Shown here in pieces: positions 1,723-53,637 of a DNA stretch of 64,000 nt (positions are counted from its first letter, which is position 1; every line of letters starts with the position of its first letter). Origin of the DNA: a virus; the IMG/VR virus record IMGVR_UViG_3300021168_000016, positions 61,422-125,421 of that record, one strand, 5' to 3'. The notes under the pieces were generated by a model that was not told the DNA's origin, did no database searches, and worked only from the letters and a program-made list of their open reading frames with translations. The position numbers and the translations under genes were made by a program.

Positions 1723-3349
1723 ATGTGGATCGTCAATCAAGGGAGACTACAAAATGCTTGGAGATTTGACTAGGCTGACAGATACACAACTGCTTGAATT
1801 CTTCATGTTGATCTTAAGCAAACCAGACAAAGAAATCTCACCATTCGATCACAGTGAAATGACTCAAATCAATGATGAATTCCTTAGACGGGGATTTGTT
1901 AGGGAAGCATACGCTGATTTACTGGCCAGTAAGGAGAAATAAGATGGACGAATGGTATTGCATGAATTGTGGGAAGCAACTAGTAAAAGTAAAGCTGGAT
2001 GAAGGTGATTTTCCTTGCTGCCTGGATTGTGCAATTAAGTATACAATTCATGGGACGGGAGTAGGCGATTCACTGTTCGTCGTAGGGGCTGACTCCCTTA
2101 AGATTACATTCTAAGGTTGCCCTATAGAAGCAGTGATAACCCCAGCCATTCGTAGCGATCTTGGTCGCAACCTAGATAAGAAAGGAGGATAGCCAATGCG
2201 GGAAAAGATGGTCATAGAAATTACTCCTGATCGCATAGAAAAGATGAAAAAGGTAGCAGTAGCCGTAGTCGAACTTATAGGTGCAAGCGACCTCACAGTG
2301 ATAGAAAAGTATCTCTGTCTTAAGTATCTGTCTGAGACGTTCACTGACACATATAAGATAGAGGCTGAAGTCTTTGAAGTCTCTACTGCAACTGATAGCA
2401 AAACTGCGAATTGAGGGACAAATGAAAAAAGAAGACGAACAGTTGAATAAACTTCAAGCAGCGGGAAATGATGTCGTCTCCCTCCTTAATGAAAGGGGAT
2501 TAACCCCAATTGAAATGCTGCTAGTCATCACAGCGCTCTACACCTCCATGGCACAGGCTCTTGGAGTAGTAGATCCCGTTGGAATGCTAGCTTCAAAGAT
2601 GAAAGACAACAAAGGTAGGAATTAAGGACGAATGCAGTGATCCTGCAGACCTGATGGCCATGACGATGGCCATCTTGAAGTAAATAGTTAAAACGGCTTA
2701 GTTAAAACTAAGGGAAGGAACATATGCCACGCAAACGACGAGTAATCGTCACAATGAAACCCGACAGCATGTACTATGCTGTCTCAATCGAAGTAGAGGG
2801 AAAGTCGAAAGGGAGTTGGGAAGCAGTTAGGCCGGCAAAGTTGATCCACAAAAGGAGAATCGAGGCGAACCGATTAGGGTATATGATTGCAAGTATGCTA
2901 GTCTTGTCCGCCAAGGAGAAGTGAAGCTGTTATATTAAGAGCTCATTGGTATCTTACTGTATTGAAAGACAAGATTTGGGGTTGACAAGCAAATGAAAGG
3001 ATCTCAGAATGGAACTCTACAGATGCCTCGACTGTGATTTCGTTGGTAATCTTGAGAAAGGAGGATGCTCCAAATGCTGTAGTCAGGCGACAATTTCTGA
3101 GGAAATTGTCAGGATTCACGATATAGAGTATGAAGTAATCAACACAGAAAGAGAAAGAGAAGAGGAATGTGCCTCTGTTCTAGTTGCAACTCCGCTCCCT
3201 GTAGCTGTAAGAAAGAAGAGTCAGTTAACTCTTCTTTTGATCATGATTTCCTCCGCTACCAGAACAAAATTCTCTTCAATGTCATCCAAAGGGGTAAAAT
3301 CCAGGTAGAGAGTAGCCCCAAACCAAACCCTTCTAAGTAGATACTGAAC

Positions 3350-3384: not shown

Positions 3385-4615
3385 TTTGTGTATCTAAGGG
3401 AGAAGAAATGAATAACGATAGAGTCGTTCATGCGTTTCAGATGGTTATGTCAGTCCCTTTAGCACCTGATGATAAAGAAGAATACTTGCAGATGAAGCAC
3501 ACGGTACTCAATTGTCTTGCGATAATCGCAGAAGCAGGAAAGTTAGAAGTGGAGCTCAATCAAGCACTTGAAAACATAACCGCAATAGTAAAGGGATCAG
3601 AATTCCGTAACTTTATAAATGAGTATCACAAAGCTGAGAAAGGAAAGAAGGACCATGCTAACTAGCCTATTGAAGGCAGATGAACATCAATACATGAAAG
3701 AAATGATTGAAGAAGCAGAATATCAAAACTTCTGCCGAGAGCATCCTCACCTAAAGAAATTCACAGAGACATTTCGACGGATGAAATATCTCAGCAGAAC
3801 ACAGATTAACCGAAAGGTCATATGCCCAATCTTGGGCCATGACATACAAAGATGTACATTCTTTGAGGAATCCAGAGGAGTAGAGGCTTTCTGGTGTAAC
3901 CGCTGTGACCATTCTGGTCATAACAGATTGTACTGAGGTATATACAGGTAAGCAGCTATGAAACACTATTATTGGATTCTGGATGAGAATGGAAATCCAC
4001 TAAAAGTAAACGATCCTCTTACCTGGGCCGCTTGGTATGAGACAGCGGAGCGGCATATCGGTAATGATTTCCTTCCTGGCGGCATTCAGATTTCAACTGT
4101 CTTTCTGGGACTGGACCATAGCTTTTCCTTCTTGGAAGAAAGTCCTCCGGTTCTATGGGAGACAATGATATTCGGAGGAGAAGAAGATGGCTACCAGGAA
4201 CGCTACTGTACCAAAGAGGAAGCACTTGAAGGGCACAAAATAGCAGTCATGTTAGCACAGATGAGCTTGTCCTCAAAGGAAGTAGGAGGTAGCAATGACA
4301 ACACGTGAGTTCCATTTTATGCTGATAGGATTCAACATCGCCATGTGGCTCTGCATAGCTATCTCTTGGGTAGCGAGGAGAAGATTGAATCACAGGAAAT
4401 GTGAGCATTGTAAGAGAAAGTTTTGGACGAGGGATTCAACCTGCAAGGATCATCCTAATCTGTTCTGTACCGATTATTGTGAAACAAGCTACGGGATAGA
4501 TTTCCTAATCTCTGAAGGCATTCCTCCAGAGGTAGCTATCAAGATAGTATGTGCTCAAGAATCAAAGTAGTATAACCCCCAACCTCCAACCAAATCTATA
4601 AAGAGGATATAGAAG

Positions 4616-6031
4616 ATGTCACAAGAGAGAGAATTATTGAACGAAGCCAGAGAACAAATTCAACGTCAACAAGAACAGCTGGAGGAACTGGCCAATCCTA
4701 GCGCTGTCAAACTGGGTACTGTGATGGCTGTCTATTCAGATTCCATCGTTGTTAGCTCGGGAGATGGTCTCTTCCAACTCATGAATCAACCGACAACTAA
4801 GCAATTCAAACCGGGAGATACCGTCTGCCTCCATCCAATGACCAGTAACCTGATAGGGAAGTCAGATTATGAAAGGTATGGGAAGACAGGAACAGTTCAG
4901 TCCATTGGGACTGACTTCATAGAAGTCATTATCGACGGTAGTTCAACCTTTGTCTCTCAGACCAGAGTGAAGGGACTGGAAACAGGTGATCGTGTACTTT
5001 GTGATGTCACCAACACTATCATCGTGAAGAAGCTCGAGAGTGAAGCTGAGAAGTACTTGTTCGCTGAACAAGTCAACCTCGACTGGAGTGAGATTGGTGG
5101 ATGTGATGAAGCAAAGAAAGAACTGAGAGGGACGATTGAGAAGCCAATGCAGCACAGCAAACTCTTTGCTGCTTTTAAGAAGAAGACACCAAAAGGCTTC
5201 TTACTTCACGGTCGTCCAGGCAATGGAAAGACTATGCTGGGAAAGGCAGTGGCAACAGCAATCGCTAAGGCTCAAGGGAAGCAAGCGGCACCTTCTGCTT
5301 TCTGCTATGTGAAGGGACCAGCAATATTAGACAAGTTCGTCGGTGAGACGGAAAAGATGATCCGAGCACTCTTTGAACAATGCCGGCAGCATAAGCAGAA
5401 ACATGGCTACCCTGCTGTCATGTTCGTCGATGAGGCTGATGCGATATTGGCTAATCGGACATCCAGTAAGCACATTGGACTTGGGATGACAGTTGTCCCC
5501 CAATTCCTATCAGAAATGGATGGACTTGTGGACAGTGCTGCCATTGTCATACTGGCTACAAACCGCCCAGATACATTGGATCCTGCCGTAATTCGTCCAG
5601 GGAGAGTAGATCACAAACTCTATATTGCTCCCCCATCCAAGGAGAATGCTACCGACCATATCGCTATCCATATGCGAGAGATTCCAACCAGTGAGGATGA
5701 TTTAGCTAGTCGGGTAACAGAAGAATTGTATACCGAAAGCTATCCTCTCTACAGGATGGTCGCTCATGGGCAGTGGGTCTTCTTTGGATTAAAAGACTTA
5801 ATCTCAGGAGCCATGCTAGCTTCCATCGTTGAACAAGCAACGTCCAATGCCATCGATAGGAACATAGAATCAAAGAGTTCTAAAATCAATGGCGTTAACT
5901 TCTGCGATTTCCAATCTGCCTTAAAGTCGATGCAGAAATCACAGTATGGTCTCAACCATGAACTGGAAGTTCAGGAGTTCGCGGAAGCTCGCGGCTTCAA
6001 ACCATCCACAATCCAGTGGGTAGGAGTCTAA
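4616..6031 (+). CDS. arc: ARC/Mpa-like proteasome-associated AAA ATPase
   Basis: N-terminal coiled coil, two OB-like interdomains, Walker A GRPGNGKT, KGPAILDKFVGETE pore loop, Walker B FVDE, ATNRPDTLDPAVIRPGR arginine-finger region, ISGAMLASIVEQA (Mpa has SGAMIQNVVDRA). Confidence 0.85.
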   Translation: MSQERELLNEAREQIQRQQEQLEELANPSAVKLGTVMAVYSDSIVVSSGDGLFQLMNQPTTKQFKPGDTVCLHPMTSNLIGKSDYERYGKTGTVQSIGTDFIEVIIDGSSTFVSQTRVKGLETGDRVLCDVTNTIIVKKLESEAEKYLFAEQVNLDWSEIGGCDEAKKELRGTIEKPMQHSKLFAAFKKKTPKGFLLHGRPGNGKTMLGKAVATAIAKAQGKQAAPSAFCYVKGPAILDKFVGETEKMIRALFEQCRQHKQKHGYPAVMFVDEADAILANRTSSKHIGLGMTVVPQFLSEMDGLVDSAAIVILATNRPDTLDPAVIRPGRVDHKLYIAPPSKENATDHIAIHMREIPTSEDDLASRVTEELYTESYPLYRMVAHGQWVFFGLKDLISGAMLASIVEQATSNAIDRNIESKSSKINGVNFCDFQSALKSMQKSQYGLNHELEVQEFAEARGFKPSTIQWVGV

Positions 6032-6032
6032 G

Positions 6033-6233
6033 ATGCAGATACAAAGGCAGCGACAGAAGGAAGGAACTGAGAACAGGAACAAGCAGATCCCATCGGGAGT
6101 TCCTGTCATTGACAACTCCGATCTCCTGGATAAGCTTCAGGAAGCGGGCAAGGAGGATGAAGGAACAGACTTTGACTCCATGGATGATGGTTCGCCATTG
6201 GATGATGGAGAAGGAGGCTGCACATGCTGGTAA
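6033..6233 (+). CDS. Small acidic disordered Pup/UBact-like peptide ending CTCW
   Basis: Starts 1 nt after the ATPase stop; VPVIDNSDLLDKL helix resembles the Pup/UBact DDLLDEI-type segment; C-terminal CxC. Confidence 0.5.
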   Translation: MQIQRQRQKEGTENRNKQIPSGVPVIDNSDLLDKLQEAGKEDEGTDFDSMDDGSPLDDGEGGCTCW

Positions 6234-6439
6234 AGAAACAGAAGAAAGAAGAAGTTAAGGAAAGCATCCATGACCAAAAGATTCCTCAAGCAGTGCCAGT
6301 CGTAGATTCCTCAGAACTGGTGAAGAAACTACAATTGGCTGAGGAAAAGAAGAAACGGGAAGAATCCCAAATCGAGAAATTGGAAAGAGAAGTAAGGCAA
6401 TTAATGAGGGAAGCAGAAAGGAAATGCGGATGCTTCTAA
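6224..6439 (+). CDS. Paralogous Pup/UBact-like peptide ending CGCF
   Basis: IPQAVPVVDSSELVKKLQ aligns with IPSGVPVIDNSDLLDKLQ of the preceding ORF; C-terminal CxC plus aromatic residue. Confidence 0.5.
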   Translation: MLVKKQKKEEVKESIHDQKIPQAVPVVDSSELVKKLQLAEEKKKREESQIEKLEREVRQLMREAERKCGCF

Positions 6440-6557
6440 TAAACTACTGGAAGACAACATATTGGAAGCATGTTTTGTTAGCAAAACCGATAATATGGGG
6501 AGTCGACTCCAACTTCAATCCGCCAAAGAAGTACATTAGAGTATTGGGGATTGCCAT

Positions 6558-6884
6558 ATGCTGGTAGAATGGTTAGAGATAGGATACCTCTCGCTAGGCA
6601 CATCAACCATCACCCTAACAATAACCCGAGCAAAGGTATCTAAGCCCCTGCGGGCTTGGATATCTTCTCATAGTAGTTACCTAGGCGAAATGATTAACTG
6701 CCCGTACTGCACCAGTCATTGGGTAGCATTTCTGCTATGTGGAATCTATCATCCACGACCCTTCCCACTGAACTGGTTAACTGACTGGTTTGTCAGTTCG
6801 ATGGCAGTCGTTGCGATTTCCTCAGTTCTAAGTCGGTTCGTGTTTTCAGCTATAACCAAAATCTATCCGCCAAAAGAGGATTAG
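6558..6884 (+). CDS. DUF1360-like membrane protein
   Basis: Hydrophobic helices with GEMINCPYCTSHW motif, typical of the L..CP.C.S.W family signature. Confidence 0.6.
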   Translation: MLVEWLEIGYLSLGTSTITLTITRAKVSKPLRAWISSHSSYLGEMINCPYCTSHWVAFLLCGIYHPRPFPLNWLTDWFVSSMAVVAISSVLSRFVFSAITKIYPPKED

Positions 6885-8032
6885 CATGCAGATAAAACAG
6901 ACTGTAAAAAGAGCTGAAGAGTCGATAGAGAGATTCAGGCAAAGAGTAGGCGGAGATATCTACTTATTCCTTTGTAGTATGATCCTATTACTCAACGGCC
7001 TGATCCTGGCTGCCGCAGGGATCTACATGATCTTTACGCGAGACTGGAAACACGGATTTGCTGTACTCCTAGTAGGAGCTGGTGCTACTATTCTCGCTCG
7101 TGTTTTCTTCTTGCTATCTCACTGGTTCAAGAGGCTAATAGACAGATTGTTTGAGAAACTTTGGGGAAAGTAGATGACAAAAGCAGAGATTAAGCAATGG
7201 TGTACCGATAACCTCTTTGGGCAGCGAAAGATATATGGAGTTGAGATACCGCTGACTCGAGCACAAAGAGCTATACTCCAGCTGGCCGTAGCTGTCATCC
7301 TTAAATGGGAGGCGAGAGATGAAGCAACAAAGGAAGTATCCAGCAAAGTTACTCCGTCGGCTAAGAAGAGAGTTGATCTTTTGGCAGACAGAGTACCTTC
7401 TGCTGGTAAAGAAGAATTACCCAATTTCGTACAGGGACCAGATATTCAAGACAAGTCTTCGCGCTAAGCAAGTCCTCAAGAATTAGGGGGTAAGGTGGAA
7501 AACAATGACAGCTTTCAAAAGCCGCCAATCAAGCCACCAACTAAGCCGCCATTCGTCGGGGATACCAATTATGTAAGATTGGATAACCGAACAAAAGTCA
7601 GCCTGATGGCAGCTATCATGTTTGCACTCGACGGCTCGATCACAGAAGATCAAGCAGTAGAATATGCAATCTCGTTGGACAATAAGGTGGCAGAGAGACT
7701 TCGACAAATTAAACACGAAAGAAGGATGAAAGGATTTCAATAAAGCACCATACTGGTTGCTGCGGTTACTTTCTACTATTTGCCTGTAGAGATAATCCGG
7801 AGAACACTCCGCAACTAATCAACCAACGGCAACTAGGAGAAGGTAATGAGAAAGGAATACGTTGGTAAGGTCAAAGAGTACAGTACAGATTCAAGGCGGA
7901 ATCCATACACGGTAATACTTGTGGAGATGCCTTCACATCTAGACTATAGGATCTTTGTTCCTGGACAGGAGTTTCTGTTCGGTGACAAGATAAGAGTAAT
8001 CCTTGAACAAACCCAAAAAGAAAAGAAAGGAA

Positions 8033-9562
8033 ATGAGCCTGATGGCAACAAAGGATGAAATTCGAGCAGAAATATTGGATCTTCTCGAAGGTGGTGATAA
8101 AAAGAAGGTTCACATCGCAGAGGTAGTACGAACTGGAGAAAAGATCATCATTCCGAAAGGGATGAAAACCAAAACAGCCATTGAAACACTGCAGAAACAA
8201 ATGCAGTATGACAACGAAACAGTCAGGATGACTTTCGACTTCAACTACTTCTACTGGGATGGAGCTTATGCTCTATCACAGGCAATGGAAAAGAGGTATG
8301 GATTTGTCTTCGGAAAGACAGAAAAGACCTTCTTCGGAGATTTTCCGCCTCAACTCGTTGGCGTCGAAGTTGAACAAGGGAAGTCTATCCTTATTCCCTA
8401 TGGAAAGTTCACGGCTCCTTCAGTAGCGGATTCAGTCTTTGAAACTGGATTCCAGATAAAAGACGGAAGGATGAACTTTCAGTACAGTGTGACCTGCAAG
8501 CACATGTACGAAGAAGAAATGAAGAAGCTTCGAGATGAAGTAGAGAAGTATCTCGAAGAACATTCAATCTACAAAGGGAAAGCAATTTCAATTCGGTTCA
8601 AGAACGATAAGGGGGAGAATCTTATAGATCTCAAACAAGTCCCAACCCCAAAGTTCTTGGATCTTTCAAAGCTTGTCGAAGATGATCTGGTCTTCAGCAA
8701 GAAGGTCGGGGATGCAATCGACACGAACCTGTTCACAATCCTTGAGAAGCCTGAACTCGCAAGGAAGGCCGGTATCCCAATCAAGAGGGGTATCCTGCTT
8801 GCCGGTGATTATGGGACAGGAAAAACACTCACAGCTTATGTAGCCGCGCAGAAGGCTGTGAAGCACAGCTTCTTCACATATATCTACTGTGAACAACCTC
8901 AGGAATTCACGCAGATTATGCGATTCGCTGCCCAGTATGCTCCTGCCCTTGTCTTCTGTGAAGATGTCGAGAAGATCGCGGGACTTGACAAGGACAAAGG
9001 TGTTGATGAACTCGTCAACATCATTGATGGCGTGGAGACGAAGAATGTGGAGATTATCGTGGTCTTCACGACCAATGTCATCAAGAATGTGCATCCTTCT
9101 TTACTGCGTCCTGGTAGGATGGATGCAGTTATCCCAATCTATAAACCAGATGCAGAGGCTGTTCAGCGTCTCGTCTGGAACTATTGTGGTCAGTTCCTGG
9201 AGATGAACGCAGATCTTTCACAGGTCGGCGAATTGCTAAAGGACAACATTCCCTCTGTAATTCGAGAAGTCTGCGAAAGGTCAAAGCTTTCTGCTCTACG
9301 CTTTGTTAATAAAGGTGAAGAGTTGAAAACAATCCCGGTAGAAGCCTTAACCGAGGCTGCTACGACAATGACAATGCAGTTAGAGCTTCTGAGTAACCGC
9401 TCAGTAACTCCTCTAAAGCCTGAAGTACAGGCCCAAGCTGATATTGCTAAGGGTCTTCTTAGGATAGCGGAAGCAATTGCTCTTTCTGCAGGGAAGAGTT
9501 TACCCGAACCAACGCCTGTAAAGATCAACAAGGAAGTCGAAGAGGTCACAGCGGCGCGCTAG
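8033..9562 (+). CDS. AAA+ ATPase (classical clade, no protease domain)
   Basis: GILLAGDYGTGKT Walker A, FCEDVE Walker B, TTN...LLRPGRMD; start placed at ATG 8033 after AAGG RBS. Confidence 0.85.
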   Translation: MSLMATKDEIRAEILDLLEGGDKKKVHIAEVVRTGEKIIIPKGMKTKTAIETLQKQMQYDNETVRMTFDFNYFYWDGAYALSQAMEKRYGFVFGKTEKTFFGDFPPQLVGVEVEQGKSILIPYGKFTAPSVADSVFETGFQIKDGRMNFQYSVTCKHMYEEEMKKLRDEVEKYLEEHSIYKGKAISIRFKNDKGENLIDLKQVPTPKFLDLSKLVEDDLVFSKKVGDAIDTNLFTILEKPELARKAGIPIKRGILLAGDYGTGKTLTAYVAAQKAVKHSFFTYIYCEQPQEFTQIMRFAAQYAPALVFCEDVEKIAGLDKDKGVDELVNIIDGVETKNVEIIVVFTTNVIKNVHPSLLRPGRMDAVIPIYKPDAEAVQRLVWNYCGQFLEMNADLSQVGELLKDNIPSVIREVCERSKLSALRFVNKGEELKTIPVEALTEAATTMTMQLELLSNRSVTPLKPEVQAQADIAKGLLRIAEAIALSAGKSLPEPTPVKINKEVEEVTAAR

Positions 9563-42305: not shown

Positions 42306-43364
42306 TTGAAGCCGAAGATCAGATTGATGGTAGATTCAGGCGCGTATAGCTCCTGGACGCAAAATAAGCCGATCTCCCTTCCTGAATACACAGAGTTCGT
42401 TCTAAAGAATCAAGAGGTAATAGATTCTGTAGTTAACCTTGATGTAATACAACCCGGCTCGCCTGAGACTGCGGCTGCGGCAGGAAGAGAAAACTTCTTA
42501 AAGATGAGGGAGGCTGGTGTCATTAGCCTCCCTGTCTTCCACGCTCGTGAGAGTCTAAAGTGGTTCGATCTTATGCTGGAGGAATGTCCTTACATTGGGA
42601 TATCAGCCACTAGTCTGGTTAGTCCTAGAGAGCAGCAATCATTCCTTGATCTAGCATTCCATTATGGAACAGATAGTAAAGGCTATCCAATTGCTAAGTA
42701 TCATGCATTCGGAGATACAGCTCCAAAGTCCCTGTTGTCATATCCATGGTTTAGTTGTGATAGCGCCACCTGGATGATATCAGGATGCAGAGCAGGCTCT
42801 GTCAAGCTGAAAGGGAAGACATATAGACTACGTTCTAAAGTAGTCTCTGATACTAATTACATTTCAGATCACGATGCTCTTCCTCAGAAAGAGGCTTGGC
42901 AAAACGAATTCAGAATGCTGGGATTAGATCCTGATGCTGTGATGTCTGTTAAGACTACACCTTCCCAACTGGCTATGATTAGATCCTATCTTGTAGCTAG
43001 TGACATCTTGAAGCTCCAAGAACAGACAAGAGGAGTAACACGCTTTAAGAAGCCAGGAGCACTCATCATCAATAAGAAGCAGGAGGCTGGTGGAATAGAA
43101 AGAGAAGGTCCTATCCGTGTCATATTTGTGATTAGTCCATCGGCAGCGTTTATGAACTTCCCAGTTATATGTGCTCTTGGGATCAAGGATATCTTGGCGT
43201 CTTACTTTTATATTGCGAAGGAAAAACCTAGATTTTGGCACGAACGATTAGTCCCCTTTCTACACGACCCAATGGCTTTCATTAAAAGTGATATGAAAAT
43301 GTCTGCTTTCTATTCTAAACTTCAGGAGGTGTTACTAAAAAAGGAATCGACGATTTTAGTATAA
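42306..43364 (+). CDS. DpdA/TGT-like 7-deazaguanine DNA transglycosylase
   Basis: VDSGAYS, NLDVI, PVFH, YHAFG, YPWFSCDSATW motifs; lies within the que cluster. Confidence 0.75.
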   Translation: MKPKIRLMVDSGAYSSWTQNKPISLPEYTEFVLKNQEVIDSVVNLDVIQPGSPETAAAAGRENFLKMREAGVISLPVFHARESLKWFDLMLEECPYIGISATSLVSPREQQSFLDLAFHYGTDSKGYPIAKYHAFGDTAPKSLLSYPWFSCDSATWMISGCRAGSVKLKGKTYRLRSKVVSDTNYISDHDALPQKEAWQNEFRMLGLDPDAVMSVKTTPSQLAMIRSYLVASDILKLQEQTRGVTRFKKPGALIINKKQEAGGIEREGPIRVIFVISPSAAFMNFPVICALGIKDILASYFYIAKEKPRFWHERLVPFLHDPMAFIKSDMKMSAFYSKLQEVLLKKESTILV

Positions 43365-50403: not shown

Positions 50404-51954
50404 ATGTTAGCAGTTAATGAGATCTACGGACCAGTAGCACAGGGAGAAGGGGCATCCTCTGGGATGCCCTGTATCTTCCTTCGGCTATCCGGATGTAACC
50501 TAGCCTGTATTTGGTGTTTCATAGGCTATACAAAGATTGCTACGCCTAAAGGATCAAGGAACATCAAGGACATTCGCGTTGGAGACTTAGTACTAAGCTC
50601 TGACGGAAGAATCATAGTCCCAAAGAAAGTAACGAAAATCTTTAAAAGAGAAACTTCTAAAGATGAAATCGTTAGAGTTTTAGTTGAGGGCGATCCGGGT
50701 GTGGTAAATAATAGAGTCTACTGTACTAAGAATCATGAATTCTCAACAAATAGAGGTTGGGTTTCTGCGCAAGATTTAAAGCCCGGTGATGAAATTGAAT
50801 TTGTAGATAACATCAACTGGCATATGAAAAATGATAACCCCTCCTGTAGACCTGAAGCTAAGCAACGATTATCGGAAATGGGTAAACGAATACATACCGG
50901 TAGAAGGGCATCTACAGAGACACGACTACGGTTAAGAGCATCTAAGTTGGGACCCAAGAATCCGCGGTATACCGGAACCTGTAATGATCCGGGATATTTA
51001 ACTCTTTGGTATAGAACAAGGAGGGATGTTCTAAAGAGGGATGGGTACAAATGTCAGAACTGCGGATCGACAGAAAACCTAGAAGTTCATCATAGTATTC
51101 CCTTCAAGATTTCTAAAAGTCATGATCCAGGTATTCTAATTACCCTCTGTAGATCATGTCATCGACAAGCCGAAAGACAGTTTCTTCACAACGGTAAGAA
51201 AGTTGTATCAGTAACACCTGTCAGCGTGAAGCAAGCAGCAAGATTCAATGGCAATAGTAAGGTAATTGAGGTCTACAATCTAGAAGTAGAGGATAACCAT
51301 ACCTACTTCGCCAATAGTTTTCTTGTGCATAATTGCGATACCCCTTACACATGGAATTGGGGAGGGACTAAGTTCGAGCATCCTGACAAGTATGATCCTA
51401 AACTTGAAATGCACACGATGTCTGTACAAGAGGTTAGTGATGAGATTTACGAGAAATCAGAAGGAATTAGGCTTCTAGTTATTTCAGGAGGCGAGCCGAT
51501 GCTACAGCAGTCAGCATTGATACACTTTCTGAGGAAGCTAAAAGATGAGAATCCCAACTGGTGGGTAGAAGTTGAGACTAATGGGACAGTTGAACCTCAT
51601 GATGAATTCATTACGTTGATAAATCAGTTCAACTGCTCTCCAAAGCTATCTAACGCAGGAAAGGATAACCCTCGTAGCAAGAGATTAAAGTTTCATGTAC
51701 TAAAGAAGATTAAGAATTCAGGTAAAGGTACATTCAAGTTTGTGATCCAATCAGAAATTGATCTAGAGGAGATGAGAGAGATTCTCCATATGGCTGAAAT
51801 ACCGCCAAGTAGTGTTTGGCTCATGCCGGAAGGACGTACTCGTGAGGAGCAGTTAGCTAGACAAGAGCAGGTTGAGCGGATGACTAAGGAACATGGCTAC
51901 AACTTTAGTCCCAGACTACACATCCTTGAACATGATAATAAGCGAGCTGTGTGA
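50404..51954 (+). CDS. queE: 7-carboxy-7-deazaguanine synthase with intein
   Basis: QGEG..SG.P..F.RLSGCNLACIW|intein|CDTPY, ISGGEPMLQ, ETNGT, CSPKL, PRLH. Confidence 0.93.
   Translation: MLAVNEIYGPVAQGEGASSGMPCIFLRLSGCNLACIWCFIGYTKIATPKGSRNIKDIRVGDLVLSSDGRIIVPKKVTKIFKRETSKDEIVRVLVEGDPGVVNNRVYCTKNHEFSTNRGWVSAQDLKPGDEIEFVDNINWHMKNDNPSCRPEAKQRLSEMGKRIHTGRRASTETRLRLRASKLGPKNPRYTGTCNDPGYLTLWYRTRRDVLKRDGYKCQNCGSTENLEVHHSIPFKISKSHDPGILITLCRSCHRQAERQFLHNGKKVVSVTPVSVKQAARFNGNSKVIEVYNLEVEDNHTYFANSFLVHNCDTPYTWNWGGTKFEHPDKYDPKLEMHTMSVQEVSDEIYEKSEGIRLLVISGGEPMLQQSALIHFLRKLKDENPNWWVEVETNGTVEPHDEFITLINQFNCSPKLSNAGKDNPRSKRLKFHVLKKIKNSGKGTFKFVIQSEIDLEEMREILHMAEIPPSSVWLMPEGRTREEQLARQEQVERMTKEHGYNFSPRLHILEHDNKRAV
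50515..51333 (+). mobile_element. Intein with HNH endonuclease in QueE
   Basis: Starts CFIGYTKI; CTKNHEF block B; RDGYKCQNCG...LEVHH...LCRSCH; ends VYNLEVEDNHTYFANSFLVHN/C. Confidence 0.92.
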
Positions 51955-52220
51955 GAAATTGGTCTAACAATCGATTTGTAACTAGATGTAAGCATGCAGC
52001 GCATGCTCGGAAGAACTGGGAAAAGACTAAAGATAACTTACATCCTGACTGCGGTAAGTTCAATAAGAACAAAAAGAGGTGTAAACGTGGACATCTTTTC
52101 ACACAAAAGAATACTCTCATTAACGCCGATGGAGCCCGGGTATGCAGAGAGTGCAGACGATACAACGAAAAGGCAAGGTATGATGCTAACGCAGCTAGGC
52201 CAAAAAGTAGAAACAGCTGA
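51951..52220 (+). CDS. HNH-associated CKRGH zinc-domain fragment
   Basis: [14 protein letters not shown]......RVCRECRR. Confidence 0.5.
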
Positions 52221-53637
52221 ATCGCCTGAGAAGTCTACTATAGAATGTGTCCCTGTTGAGATGGCAGAACTCAGGAATGCCGTAGCGAGATATTCTTGTC
52301 CTGAGTTCACTAGCCTTTGTCTGGCTGGTGATACACTAGTCGATGTATGTTGTAATGAAACAGAGTACCCAAAAGGTATTCCCATACAGCAGCTTGTAGG
52401 CACTGAAGGTTATGTATTCTCTTTTGATCCTTCAATGCGTCAACCGGTTGTCAAGAAATATTTCGATGTAAGAAAAACACAGGAAAATGTCCCTGTAGTT
52501 AAAGTTGAAATGCTGGCACTTCGAGGGACAAATACAATGGGAAGGAAATCAGAAACTGTAACAATACGTCTGACACCTGATCATTTAGTTCTTGTCATTA
52601 GGGGGTGGAATGGATACGAATGGGTTCCCGCAGGGAAACTAAAAATAGGAGACAGGATTTTCTCAGACCAACGTGGCAGAGGAGATACAATTAGATGTCA
52701 TTCAAGACATTCTCTAATTGCCCAATGCTTAATAGGAAGGAAACTTCGATCTGATGAAGATGCACATCACATCAATACTAATCATTTTGACAATACACCG
52801 ATAAATATAGAGGTACTAGCAGATGGAGAGCACTCTCGATTACATAGAAGTATGCAATATGGTTACGACGATATTATCGATGTGAATAAACTTGTTAAAC
52901 TTTATGAATCAAACCCAGAAATTTCTATCATTGATATTGCACAGGAATACAGATGCGATCCTTCAACAATTGAATCGAGACTTAAAGGAAGGACAAGAAT
53001 TAAATCGCAAGCTGAAATACTCCTAGCAAGGCGTTCTCGGGAACTTGAAAACGCTATGGAAGAATGTTCTGATTTGTATCAGGAGGGCTATACGACCAGA
53101 GAAATTAGTATGTACTTTGAAGTACATGATACAACTATATTGCAGTGGCTTAGAAAAAAAGGAATACAACTACGTGAATCAAATAGGAGTAGGGCATTAA
53201 GAAAGTCACTCGACTTACCGTCGTTAAATCATAAAGTTATTAGCGTTACTAGTGACGGTACTTCAGATGTTTACAATATGGAAGTTGAAGACACTGAATG
53301 TTTCTTCGCTAATGAAATCGTAGTTCACAATTGTCCTGTTACTGGACAGCCTGACTATGCAAAGCTATATATTGATGTAATTCCCAACATGTGGCTACCT
53401 GAATCAAAGAGCTTAAAGTTATTCCTAGGTGCCTTCAGACAGCACGGCGGCTTTCATGAAGAAACCACTGTCTATATTGGGACAAGGCTGCATGATGCTT
53501 GCCATCCCACATGGATCAGGATTGCAGGACTATGGTTTCCTCGCGGCGGCATCGGGATTGATTGTTTCTGGGAAAAAGGCCACAAAGGAACTACCTACGT
53601 ACCTACATTAAGGCAGAGAAATTATGAGGGAAGATAA
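52180..53637 (+). CDS. queF: PreQ0 reductase (type I) with intein
   Basis: PEFTSL|intein|[28 protein letters not shown]. Confidence 0.9.
52318..53331 (+). mobile_element. Intein with HNH endonuclease in QueF
   Basis: Starts CLAGDTLV; LTPDH; [21 protein letters not shown]; HTH repeats; ends [22 protein letters not shown]. Confidence 0.92.

Follow-up and report, generated by a model that had tools for sequence, protein, structure and literature searches.

A conserved phage gene cassette joining an ARC-type AAA+ ATPase, cysteine-tailed microproteins and a DUF1360 membrane protein

In this work, we analyzed a 64,000-nucleotide stretch of viral DNA (hereafter the window; bases 61422-125421 of the 125,421-base IMG/VR virus record IMGVR_UViG_3300021168_000016, which CheckV estimates to be 87% complete) and found within it a conserved cassette, not a chance arrangement, of an ARC/Mpa-type ATPase gene, genes for small proteins with a C-terminal Cys pair, and a gene for a membrane protein of the DUF1360 family. 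The three kinds of gene very probably form a functional unit. All lie on the + strand: the AAA+ unfoldase at 4616-6031 (471 amino acids [aa], ending QWVGV), Cys-pair-tailed microprotein 1 at 6033-6233 (66 aa, ending CTCW), microprotein 2 at 6224-6439 (71 aa, ending CGCF), and the DUF1360 protein at 6558-6884 (108 aa, with a CPYC motif). The open reading frames (ORFs) that a first-pass annotation of this DNA had described are all present, and they are tightly packed. At the junction of the ATPase and peptide 1, which reads TAA-g-ATG, the stop ends at 6031 and the start follows at 6033 after a 1-nucleotide (nt) spacer, while the ATG of peptide 2 (6224) overlaps the 3' end of peptide 1 by 10 nt; a Shine-Dalgarno-like AGGAG (peptide 1) or AGGAGG (peptide 2) stands 6 nt before each ATG. 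A simple consensus scan of the + strand from 4300 to 8100 returned no promoter-like or terminator-like site, which is compatible with a single transcript but does not prove one. A search of sequencing runs for signs of expression gave no RNA run and a single DNA run, from a soil metagenome, that may be the source of this DNA.

The cassette stands out by its recurrence. A word-indexed protein search gave 880 homologues of the ATPase (E <= 1e-20), many of which align over the full length with 37 to 49% identity, and an alignment of 34 homologues led to a set of 80 viral loci and 80 loci from species-representative genomes. Among these one order recurs, in which the ATPase is followed first by a small charged ORF whose C terminus bears a Cys pair and then by a membrane ORF resembling DUF1360. 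When a tail peptide was scored as a small, Cys-pair-tailed ORF no more than 650 nt downstream of the ATPase, one was present in 20 of 41 usable loci among the closest viral loci and in 13 of 24 among the closest genome loci; the figures for the remaining viral and genome loci were 1 of 36 and 0 of 37, and the background among other ORFs of 40 to 110 aa in the same loci was 44 of 6618. DUF1360 was counted with a refined motif in the 130 loci whose ATPase ORF is followed by 1300 nt or more of sequence (background, 0 of 2771 other ORFs). By this count, the membrane gene accompanies the peptide in 30 of the 32 tail-peptide loci and is missing from 2, whereas it is found in 1 of 7 loci with a second peptide type, termed knuckle and described below, and among loci with neither peptide type it is present in 4 and absent from 87. 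The two exceptions (L017 and L037) have a DUF1360 homologue by a looser motif and by BLAST clustering, which brings the tail loci to 32 of 32. Wherever position was scored, the peptide lies between the ATPase and DUF1360 (30/30), and the loci with DUF1360 and apparently neither peptide that we examined turned out to hold variant Cys peptides just beyond our definition, for example, a CC pair followed by 7 residues at L021 and GGCWC with lower charge at L053.

BLAST clustering of all ORFs of at least 70 aa across 38 cassette loci leads to the same gene set. Only the ATPase and DUF1360 were each found in 38/38 loci; two clusters of 26 loci have coordinates that mark them as overlapping ORFs within the ATPase gene, and every other cluster reaches at most 4 loci. 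The ATPase is immediately upstream in all 38, its stop often overlapping or nearly abutting the next start. The adjacent CxxC membrane protein, which the first-pass annotation had raised as a possible redox partner, is accordingly an obligate partner gene. That annotation had also called for a neighborhood survey and had named a failure of the peptides to co-occur with arc homologues as grounds for giving up the idea; the Cys-tailed peptides co-occur systematically with arc-type ATPase homologues, so that objection falls. No ligase, protease or E1 recurs beside the cassette in the 38 loci. A ThiF/E1-like gene in a Saccharibacteria metagenome-assembled genome (MAG), on the same strand as the ATPase and 1.4 kb upstream of it (L100:2176-3105, +), recurs nowhere else among these loci and therefore is not counted in the system. 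Three MAG loci (L082, L085 and L089) also have a short conserved + strand ORF that ends just before the ATPase start; the window has no such ORF.

The cassette is found on IMG/VR contigs between 13 and 608 kb long and on MAG contigs labelled as Saccharibacteria, other phyla of the candidate phyla radiation (CPR), Gammaproteobacteria and, once, Lysinibacter. The Lysinibacter contig has a phage-like look, with a T4 baseplate protein. Several of the CPR contigs look cellular, the cassette being flanked by Mur ligase and Fpg genes, by genes for a P-type metal ATPase, DsbD_2 and TrmB, or by NUDIX and glycosyltransferase genes, so the cassette appears to be common to phages and to very small bacteria. 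Cultured phages were less informative. No blastn match to phage DNA was found among GenBank phages, and a search for related loci with the single window ATPase gave 0 in viral contigs and 1 distant locus in metagenome contigs. By tblastn, two records cover at least 80% of the query, both of them Brevundimonas phages. The one examined, Brevundimonas phage Polewnik, has an ATPase annotated as "proteasome-associated" that differs in its N terminus and belongs to a different subfamily, with neither a Cys-tail peptide nor DUF1360 downstream; on this basis, no cultured phage with the cassette was found. A literature search, which did not extend to paper supplements, likewise found no description of a cassette of this ATPase, a Cys-tailed peptide and DUF1360.

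The ATPase aligns with NCBIfam TIGR03689 (pup_AAA) nearly end to end, its residues 6-467 of 471 matching profile positions 22-506 of 512 at 274.9 bits. This is its best-scoring NCBIfam family (PAN and CDC48 reach 181 and 185 bits, respectively), yet the score does not reach the curated equivalog cut-off of 504.75 bits; Pfam recognizes the AAA domain only. An AlphaFold2 model made from an alignment of 34 homologues (pLDDT, 85) predicts an N-terminal helix at residues 3-26, small beta-barrel domains resembling the oligonucleotide/oligosaccharide-binding (OB) fold at 32-83 and 88-140, and an AAA module from about residue 150, with strands at 377-391. The predicted structure thus has the elements of the ARC/Mpa architecture, namely, an N-terminal helix, two OB domains, one AAA module and a C-terminal helical/beta-hairpin region. 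In a Foldseek search of the PDB, ranks 1 to 30 were all Mpa/ARC chains (7pxc, 7px9, 5kwa, 5kzf and 7ljf), matched over 470 to 487 aligned columns at E values down to 4e-33, and eukaryotic Rpt subunits ranked next. Walker A (GRPGNGKT, at residue 199), the pore loop (KFVG, at 240) and Walker B (VMFVDEAD, at 268) are intact, and the key residues of all three, including the aromatic-hydrophobic-Gly pattern of the pore loop, are invariant in the homologues; by these motifs the ATPase looks active. Within the N-terminal helix, A11 and Q18, seven residues apart, are each at least 90% conserved in the 34 homologues.

The window ATPase has no GQYL or HbYX docking tail. A penultimate Tyr or Phe occurs in 0 of 32 cassette ATPases, whereas all five control actinobacterial ARCs have the GQYL end, and from its sequence the cassette unfoldase appears to be without a means of docking on a 20S proteasome. 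The 125-kb phage record gave no match to PafA/Dop (PF03136), the proteasome (PF00227) or Pup (PF05639). Two statements of the first-pass annotation, that a full ARC/Mpa-type unfoldase is encoded without its docking motif and that PafA/Dop are not to be seen, are therefore borne out, the latter within a record that is 87% complete. In a FastTree phylogeny of 107 rows (midpoint root only; 28 of 135 rows longer than 700 aa were dropped), the five ARC controls cluster with Nitrospira/Nitrospina and a small number of archaeal rows (support, 96), and 31 of the 32 tail-cassette ATPases fall into a separate clade of 84 viral and MAG rows (support, 97). The ATPase thus is predicted to work like ARC, yet it lies outside the proteasomal ARC/Mpa equivalog.

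Neither microprotein has a match in Pfam, PHROGs or NCBIfam. The two are paralogous, as previously proposed, with 31% identity over 55 residues in a single BLASTP comparison (E 1e-9). Peptide 1 has a basic N terminus, the helix motif VPVIDNSDLLDKLQ and an acidic linker ahead of CTCW; peptide 2 has a Lys/Glu-rich helical linker ahead of CGCF. Of 1108 six-frame ORFs of at least 30 aa in the 125-kb record, only these two adjacent ones have a C-x-C-aromatic end, which excludes a chance origin of the tails. A profile of a 24-member peptide alignment, searched against 1.84 billion protein cluster representatives at E <= 1e-3, gave 100 hits, with peptide 2 itself among them as a cluster representative. 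Ninety-eight of the hits are 54 to 97 aa long and match end to end. The only candidates for fused forms were the two long hits (406 and 721 aa), both of which look unrelated. Peptide relatives found in the word-indexed protein search are without names and without Pfam domains. The family shares one plan: the start is rich in Lys and leads to a conserved Pro and a run of Gly; then come another conserved Pro and the acidic amphipathic pattern [DE]-[VI]-D-D-[VI]-L-x-x-[IL]-D-x-A-L; and finally a Lys/Arg/Glu-rich linker and the Cys pair. Two Cys residues 1 to 3 residues apart and no more than 6 residues from the C terminus are present in 90 of the 100 hits. Among the 98 short members, CGC is the commonest tail pair (53/98); the second Cys is the last residue in 28, is directly followed by an aromatic residue in 31 (terminal in 13) and by Gly in 20. 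The first-pass description of the ends as CxC-aromatic thus holds for both window peptides but not for the family as a whole, where the Cys-pair tail is broader and CxC-aromatic is one of its variants. Cys peptides in tandem are also found at L002-L004, L039, L044 and L055, and L052 has a Cys-Glu-Cys end. Another class of microprotein, with the pattern C-x2-G-C-x-C-x2-C-x4-C-x-G-H, was seen at L002-L004.

As had been suggested, the peptides are Pup-like in their size, their predicted disorder and their central acidic helix; both lack the GGQ/GGE conjugation end. We compared them with a profile of 19 actinobacterial Pups from the searched genomes, leaving out the loci of six unpublished genomes. 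In hhalign, the helix of the 24-peptide alignment aligned with the conserved Pup helix at a probability of 39% and a score of 22.4, which none of 200 column shuffles in either direction reached (maxima, 13.4 and 12.5). With the 98-member profile, the probability was 82%, the E value 1.1e-5 and the score 29.5 (shuffle maximum, 14.4 in 100 shuffles). At the level of these profiles, the likeness is real as a pattern, that of an acidic amphipathic helix of matching period. According to passages of one paper (PMC8755798), residues 21-51 of Pup form a helix that binds antiparallel to the coiled coil of Mpa, and the disordered N terminus of Pup is the part that threads into the pore.

The window membrane protein matches DUF1360 (PF07098) at 33.2 bits, against a gathering cut-off of 21, and 7 of 8 partner proteins from other loci also pass this cut-off. 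Its look-alikes in the Atlas are DUF1360 clusters, many of them viral and several entirely so. In one paper, DUF1360 is listed for a mycobacteriophage membrane protein, with no function given. The AlphaFold2 model (pLDDT, 96) has helices at residues 2-24, 26-38, 40-47, 49-64 and 73-102 and found no PDB match at E <= 0.001 in Foldseek. The protein has three long hydrophobic helices, and its CxxC opens the second of these, after a Lys/Arg-rich loop. Only R32 and the two Cys of this motif (C48 and C51; CPYC in the window) are invariant in 35 cassette partners, and conservation reaches 90% or more at T21, S53, H54 and W55. Lys plus Arg averages 4.0 in the loop before the CxxC, 0.2 at the N terminus and 0.9 in loop 2. 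Because of this Lys/Arg-rich loop, the positive-inside rule predicts that the CxxC is at the cytoplasmic face of the membrane, the side on which a peptide lacking a signal sequence would remain. We looked by eye for covariation of the tail type (CC versus CxC) with the DUF1360 motif (CPWC versus CPYC) and rejected it: L003/L004 fit, but L066/L068 and L021 did not.

A modular pattern emerges from the knuckle-type loci. In seven loci the peptide ends in the knuckle C-x-C-G-x2-3-C-x-[IY]-G, and DUF1360 is missing in six of these. Of 19 peptides with knuckle-type or other Cys-rich endings, 7 retain a match to the family profile over the N-terminal region and helix (E <= 0.004, Z = 1000), and the ATPase is the only gene common to tail-type and knuckle-type loci. 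The helix, then, seems to go with the ATPase and the bare Cys pair with the CxxC protein. Among the viral loci, L023, L025, L035/L036, L045, L039 and L006 have, right after the ATPase, peptides of the same N-terminal and helix plan that end in C-x-C-G-x2-3-C-x-I-G-P-F, with DUF1360 mostly missing.

With the ATPase as the one gene that both kinds of peptide share, this pattern is most simply read as a division of labor, in which the N-terminal and helix part of the peptide is for the ATPase, its Cys pair is for DUF1360 and the whole would form a bridge between them. We therefore favor, tentatively, the view that the microprotein is a ligase-free adaptor between the ATPase and DUF1360 that stations the unfoldase at the membrane. 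The central acidic amphipathic helix would dock, in the manner of the Pup helix on Mpa, on the N-terminal helix (coiled coil) of the ATPase, whose pore may be threaded by the Lys/Gly-rich N terminus of the peptide. At the cytoplasmic face, the C-terminal Cys pair would join the DUF1360 CxxC, either through a shared metal ion (a zinc "clasp") or through a mixed disulfide. The outcome would be an unfoldase held at, and perhaps pulling on, the membrane protein. We infer the physical contacts, the metal or disulfide chemistry and the purpose for the phage. More conjectural is the general proposition that a proteasome-free ARC-type ATPase, widespread in phages and CPR bacteria, relies on an enzyme-free form of coupling in which the Cys pair of a Pup-like microprotein latches reversibly onto CxxC membrane proteins by zinc or a mixed disulfide; this we regard as possible but doubtful.

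Several points weigh against a bridging adaptor. Not one of the 24 peptides matches the Pfam Pup family (PF05639) even at E <= 10. The likeness to Pup is short (19 to 20 columns), and a reversed Pup profile scores 17.8 against 22.4 for the 24 peptides and 24.9 against 29.5 for the 98-member profile. Since this control scores nearly as high, homology of the peptides to Pup is unproven and common descent is not established; the likeness may be one of acidic amphipathic helix pattern only. In the window phage, the N-terminal helix of the ATPase is itself acidic (7 Glu and 3 Arg in residues 3-26), as is the peptide helix, so charge complementarity is lacking; the basic cytoplasmic loop of DUF1360 is a possible alternative binding site for the peptide helix. 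A stable disulfide is disfavored in the reducing cytoplasm, and the sharing of zinc is proposed purely by analogy with CD4/Lck and Rad50. The loci are also related to one another, with L009/L024 and L035/L036 identical and L082/L083 and L088/L092 near-identical, so the locus counts are not counts of independent events. A complex prediction of two copies of ATPase residues 1-150 with peptide 1, with alignments for both, scored 0.23, the mark being 0.32, and is counted neither for nor against the adaptor.

The same linkage data could be read in another way, which we consider unlikely. The peptide may be a pseudo-substrate or regulator that acts on the ATPase as an inhibitor, activator or timer, its helix lying on the coiled coil and its N terminus in the pore, and DUF1360 may be the substrate that is extracted or remodelled, for instance altering membrane permeability late in infection. 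The intact pore loop of the ATPase is in keeping with this, as is the next ORF in the window (6886-7173, +), a hydrophobic protein of 95 aa whose start abuts the DUF1360 stop and which has a weak, sub-cut-off match to the actinobacterial holin-X family (PF07332, E 1.9e-4). However, BLAST clustering did not find this holin-like ORF conserved among the other cassette loci. Moreover, the cassette is surrounded in the window by genes of the early or replication type, and it also occurs on the cellular-looking CPR contigs, where a lysis timer would make no sense.

Less probable still is a covalent tag that needs no ligase, its Cys-pair tail forming a disulfide, thioester or similar bond with targets and so marking them for the ATPase as Pup does for Mpa. 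In size, disorder and helix the peptide would suit such a role, its C-terminal reactive group is placed as is the conjugation site of Pup, CGC is redox-active and mimics protein disulfide isomerase, and ligase genes are found neither in the phage record nor as conserved neighbors of the cassette. But the peptide has one invariant partner, a small membrane protein with a CxxC of its own, and this argues for one dedicated partner rather than many targets. Thiol conjugates would also be unstable in a reducing cytoplasm, and with docking tails on 0/32 cassette ATPases and no proteasome match in the record, there is no protease to which a tagged protein could be delivered. The thiol-based tag envisaged in the first-pass annotation is thus possible, but nothing points to conjugation, and a bridging adaptor fits the gene pattern better.

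We consider it improbable that the peptide and DUF1360 are a metal or redox chaperone pair, handling a metal ion or thiol redox equivalents at the membrane, to which the ATPase is only loosely linked, for example, for quality control. Both proteins do have Cys pairs, and in one Saccharibacteria MAG (L089:7682-11181, -) the genes flanking the cassette encode a heavy-metal P-type ATPase with an HMA domain and a thiol-disulfide membrane protein, DsbD_2. This flank fits a metal/thiol theme but is a single case, and a loosely linked ATPase is hard to reconcile with one that is immediately upstream in all 38 cassette loci and that the knuckle-type peptides retain while losing DUF1360. Finally, decoys that hijack host pupylation, as also proposed in the first-pass annotation, or a modified (RiPP-like or lipidated) peptide matured by DUF1360 seem very improbable: the local helix likeness to Pup and a Cys-rich C terminus reminiscent of modified peptides speak for them, but there is no GGQ/GGE end or Pup family match, the cassette ATPases form a clade apart from actinobacterial ARC, the cassette MAGs (Saccharibacteria, other CPR phyla and Gammaproteobacteria) are of groups not known for pupylation, two of them (G002 and G003) gave no Pup match, no maturation enzyme is conserved nearby in the 38 loci, and with three helices and about 100 aa, DUF1360 would be a small enzyme.

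As for the rest of the window, nearly all of its ORFs of at least 150 aa are on the + strand. The large ones include a DNA polymerase, clamp loader, single-stranded DNA-binding protein, UvsX-like recombinase, SbcCD, DnaB-like helicase and primase, together with genes of the 7-deazaguanine pathway. A QueE-like radical-SAM gene (50404-51954, +) and a GTP-cyclohydrolase-like gene (51994-53637, +) each contain an HNH endonuclease domain within the ORF; these domains may be inteins or fused homing endonucleases. A further gene (42306-43364) resembles queuine tRNA-ribosyltransferase. Some 1.1 kb downstream of the cassette is a second AAA+ ATPase (8003-9562, +; 519 aa), a strong member of PHROG 10440, a family of unknown function (E 1e-133). 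Homologues of it seem to lie near the cassette at L032 and L042 as well, judging from the coordinates of overlapping ORFs. Upstream of the ARC-type ATPase are three small Cys-rich ORFs (3009-3308, 3619-3936 and 4295-4570, all +), none of which had a match in the family libraries searched; the last has a hydrophobic N terminus and CxxC pairs.

The closest known system is Pup-Mpa. Like it, the cassette pairs an ARC-type ATPase, with N-terminal helix, double OB domain and AAA module, with a disordered partner of about 65 aa that is encoded beside it and whose central acidic helix can be aligned with the one through which Pup binds Mpa. The peptide N terminus is Gly-rich and flexible, as is the threading end of Pup in the passages of PMC8755798 noted above. 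However, the peptide ends in a Cys pair rather than in GGQ/GGE, PafA/Dop and 20S proteasome matches are missing from the phage record, and GQYL is found on 0/32 cassette ATPases and on 5/5 control ARCs. The cassette ATPase also scores below the TIGR03689 cut-off and belongs to a separate clade, and its obligate DUF1360 partner has no counterpart in the Pup system.

Two other sets of systems invite comparison. UBact and its Mpa homologues, known from Nitrospirota/Nitrospinota and other Gram-negative phyla, likewise place the gene for a small Pup-like tag beside an Mpa-type ATPase outside the Actinobacteria. UBact systems, however, keep PafA/Dop-type enzymes and proteasome genes, their tags end in Gln or Glu, and in our tree the Nitrospira/Nitrospina ATPases group with actinobacterial ARC rather than with the cassette clade. 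Among membrane AAA+ machines, FtsH, Msp1/ATAD1 and Cdc48 with its membrane adaptors have the outcome that we propose here, a ring unfoldase held at the membrane for membrane proteins. The cassette ATPase differs in having neither a transmembrane segment nor a protease domain; its anchor would be a separate three-helix protein, reached through a microprotein bridge. As to the chemistry, two Cys pairs make up the intermolecular zinc sites of the CD4/CD8-Lck zinc clasp and the Rad50 zinc hook, and CGC and CPYC are known redox-active arrangements. By analogy, the CxC on the flexible tail and the CxxC of the partner could together supply four thiolates.

To our knowledge, the recruitment of substrates to a bacterial ARC-type unfoldase by a disordered tag is well understood only for Pup-Mpa, which needs a ligase and ends at the proteasome. 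The cassette keeps the unfoldase and a Pup-like helix, has a Cys pair in place of the conjugation end, and adds a membrane protein with a matching Cys pair. Because the three proteins are small and readily expressed, the hypothesis can be tested directly. If the proposed contacts are real, they would show how metal or thiol chemistry can serve to target an unfoldase, would give a first functional handle on DUF1360, and would reveal a role for the ARC-like ATPases of phages and CPR bacteria.

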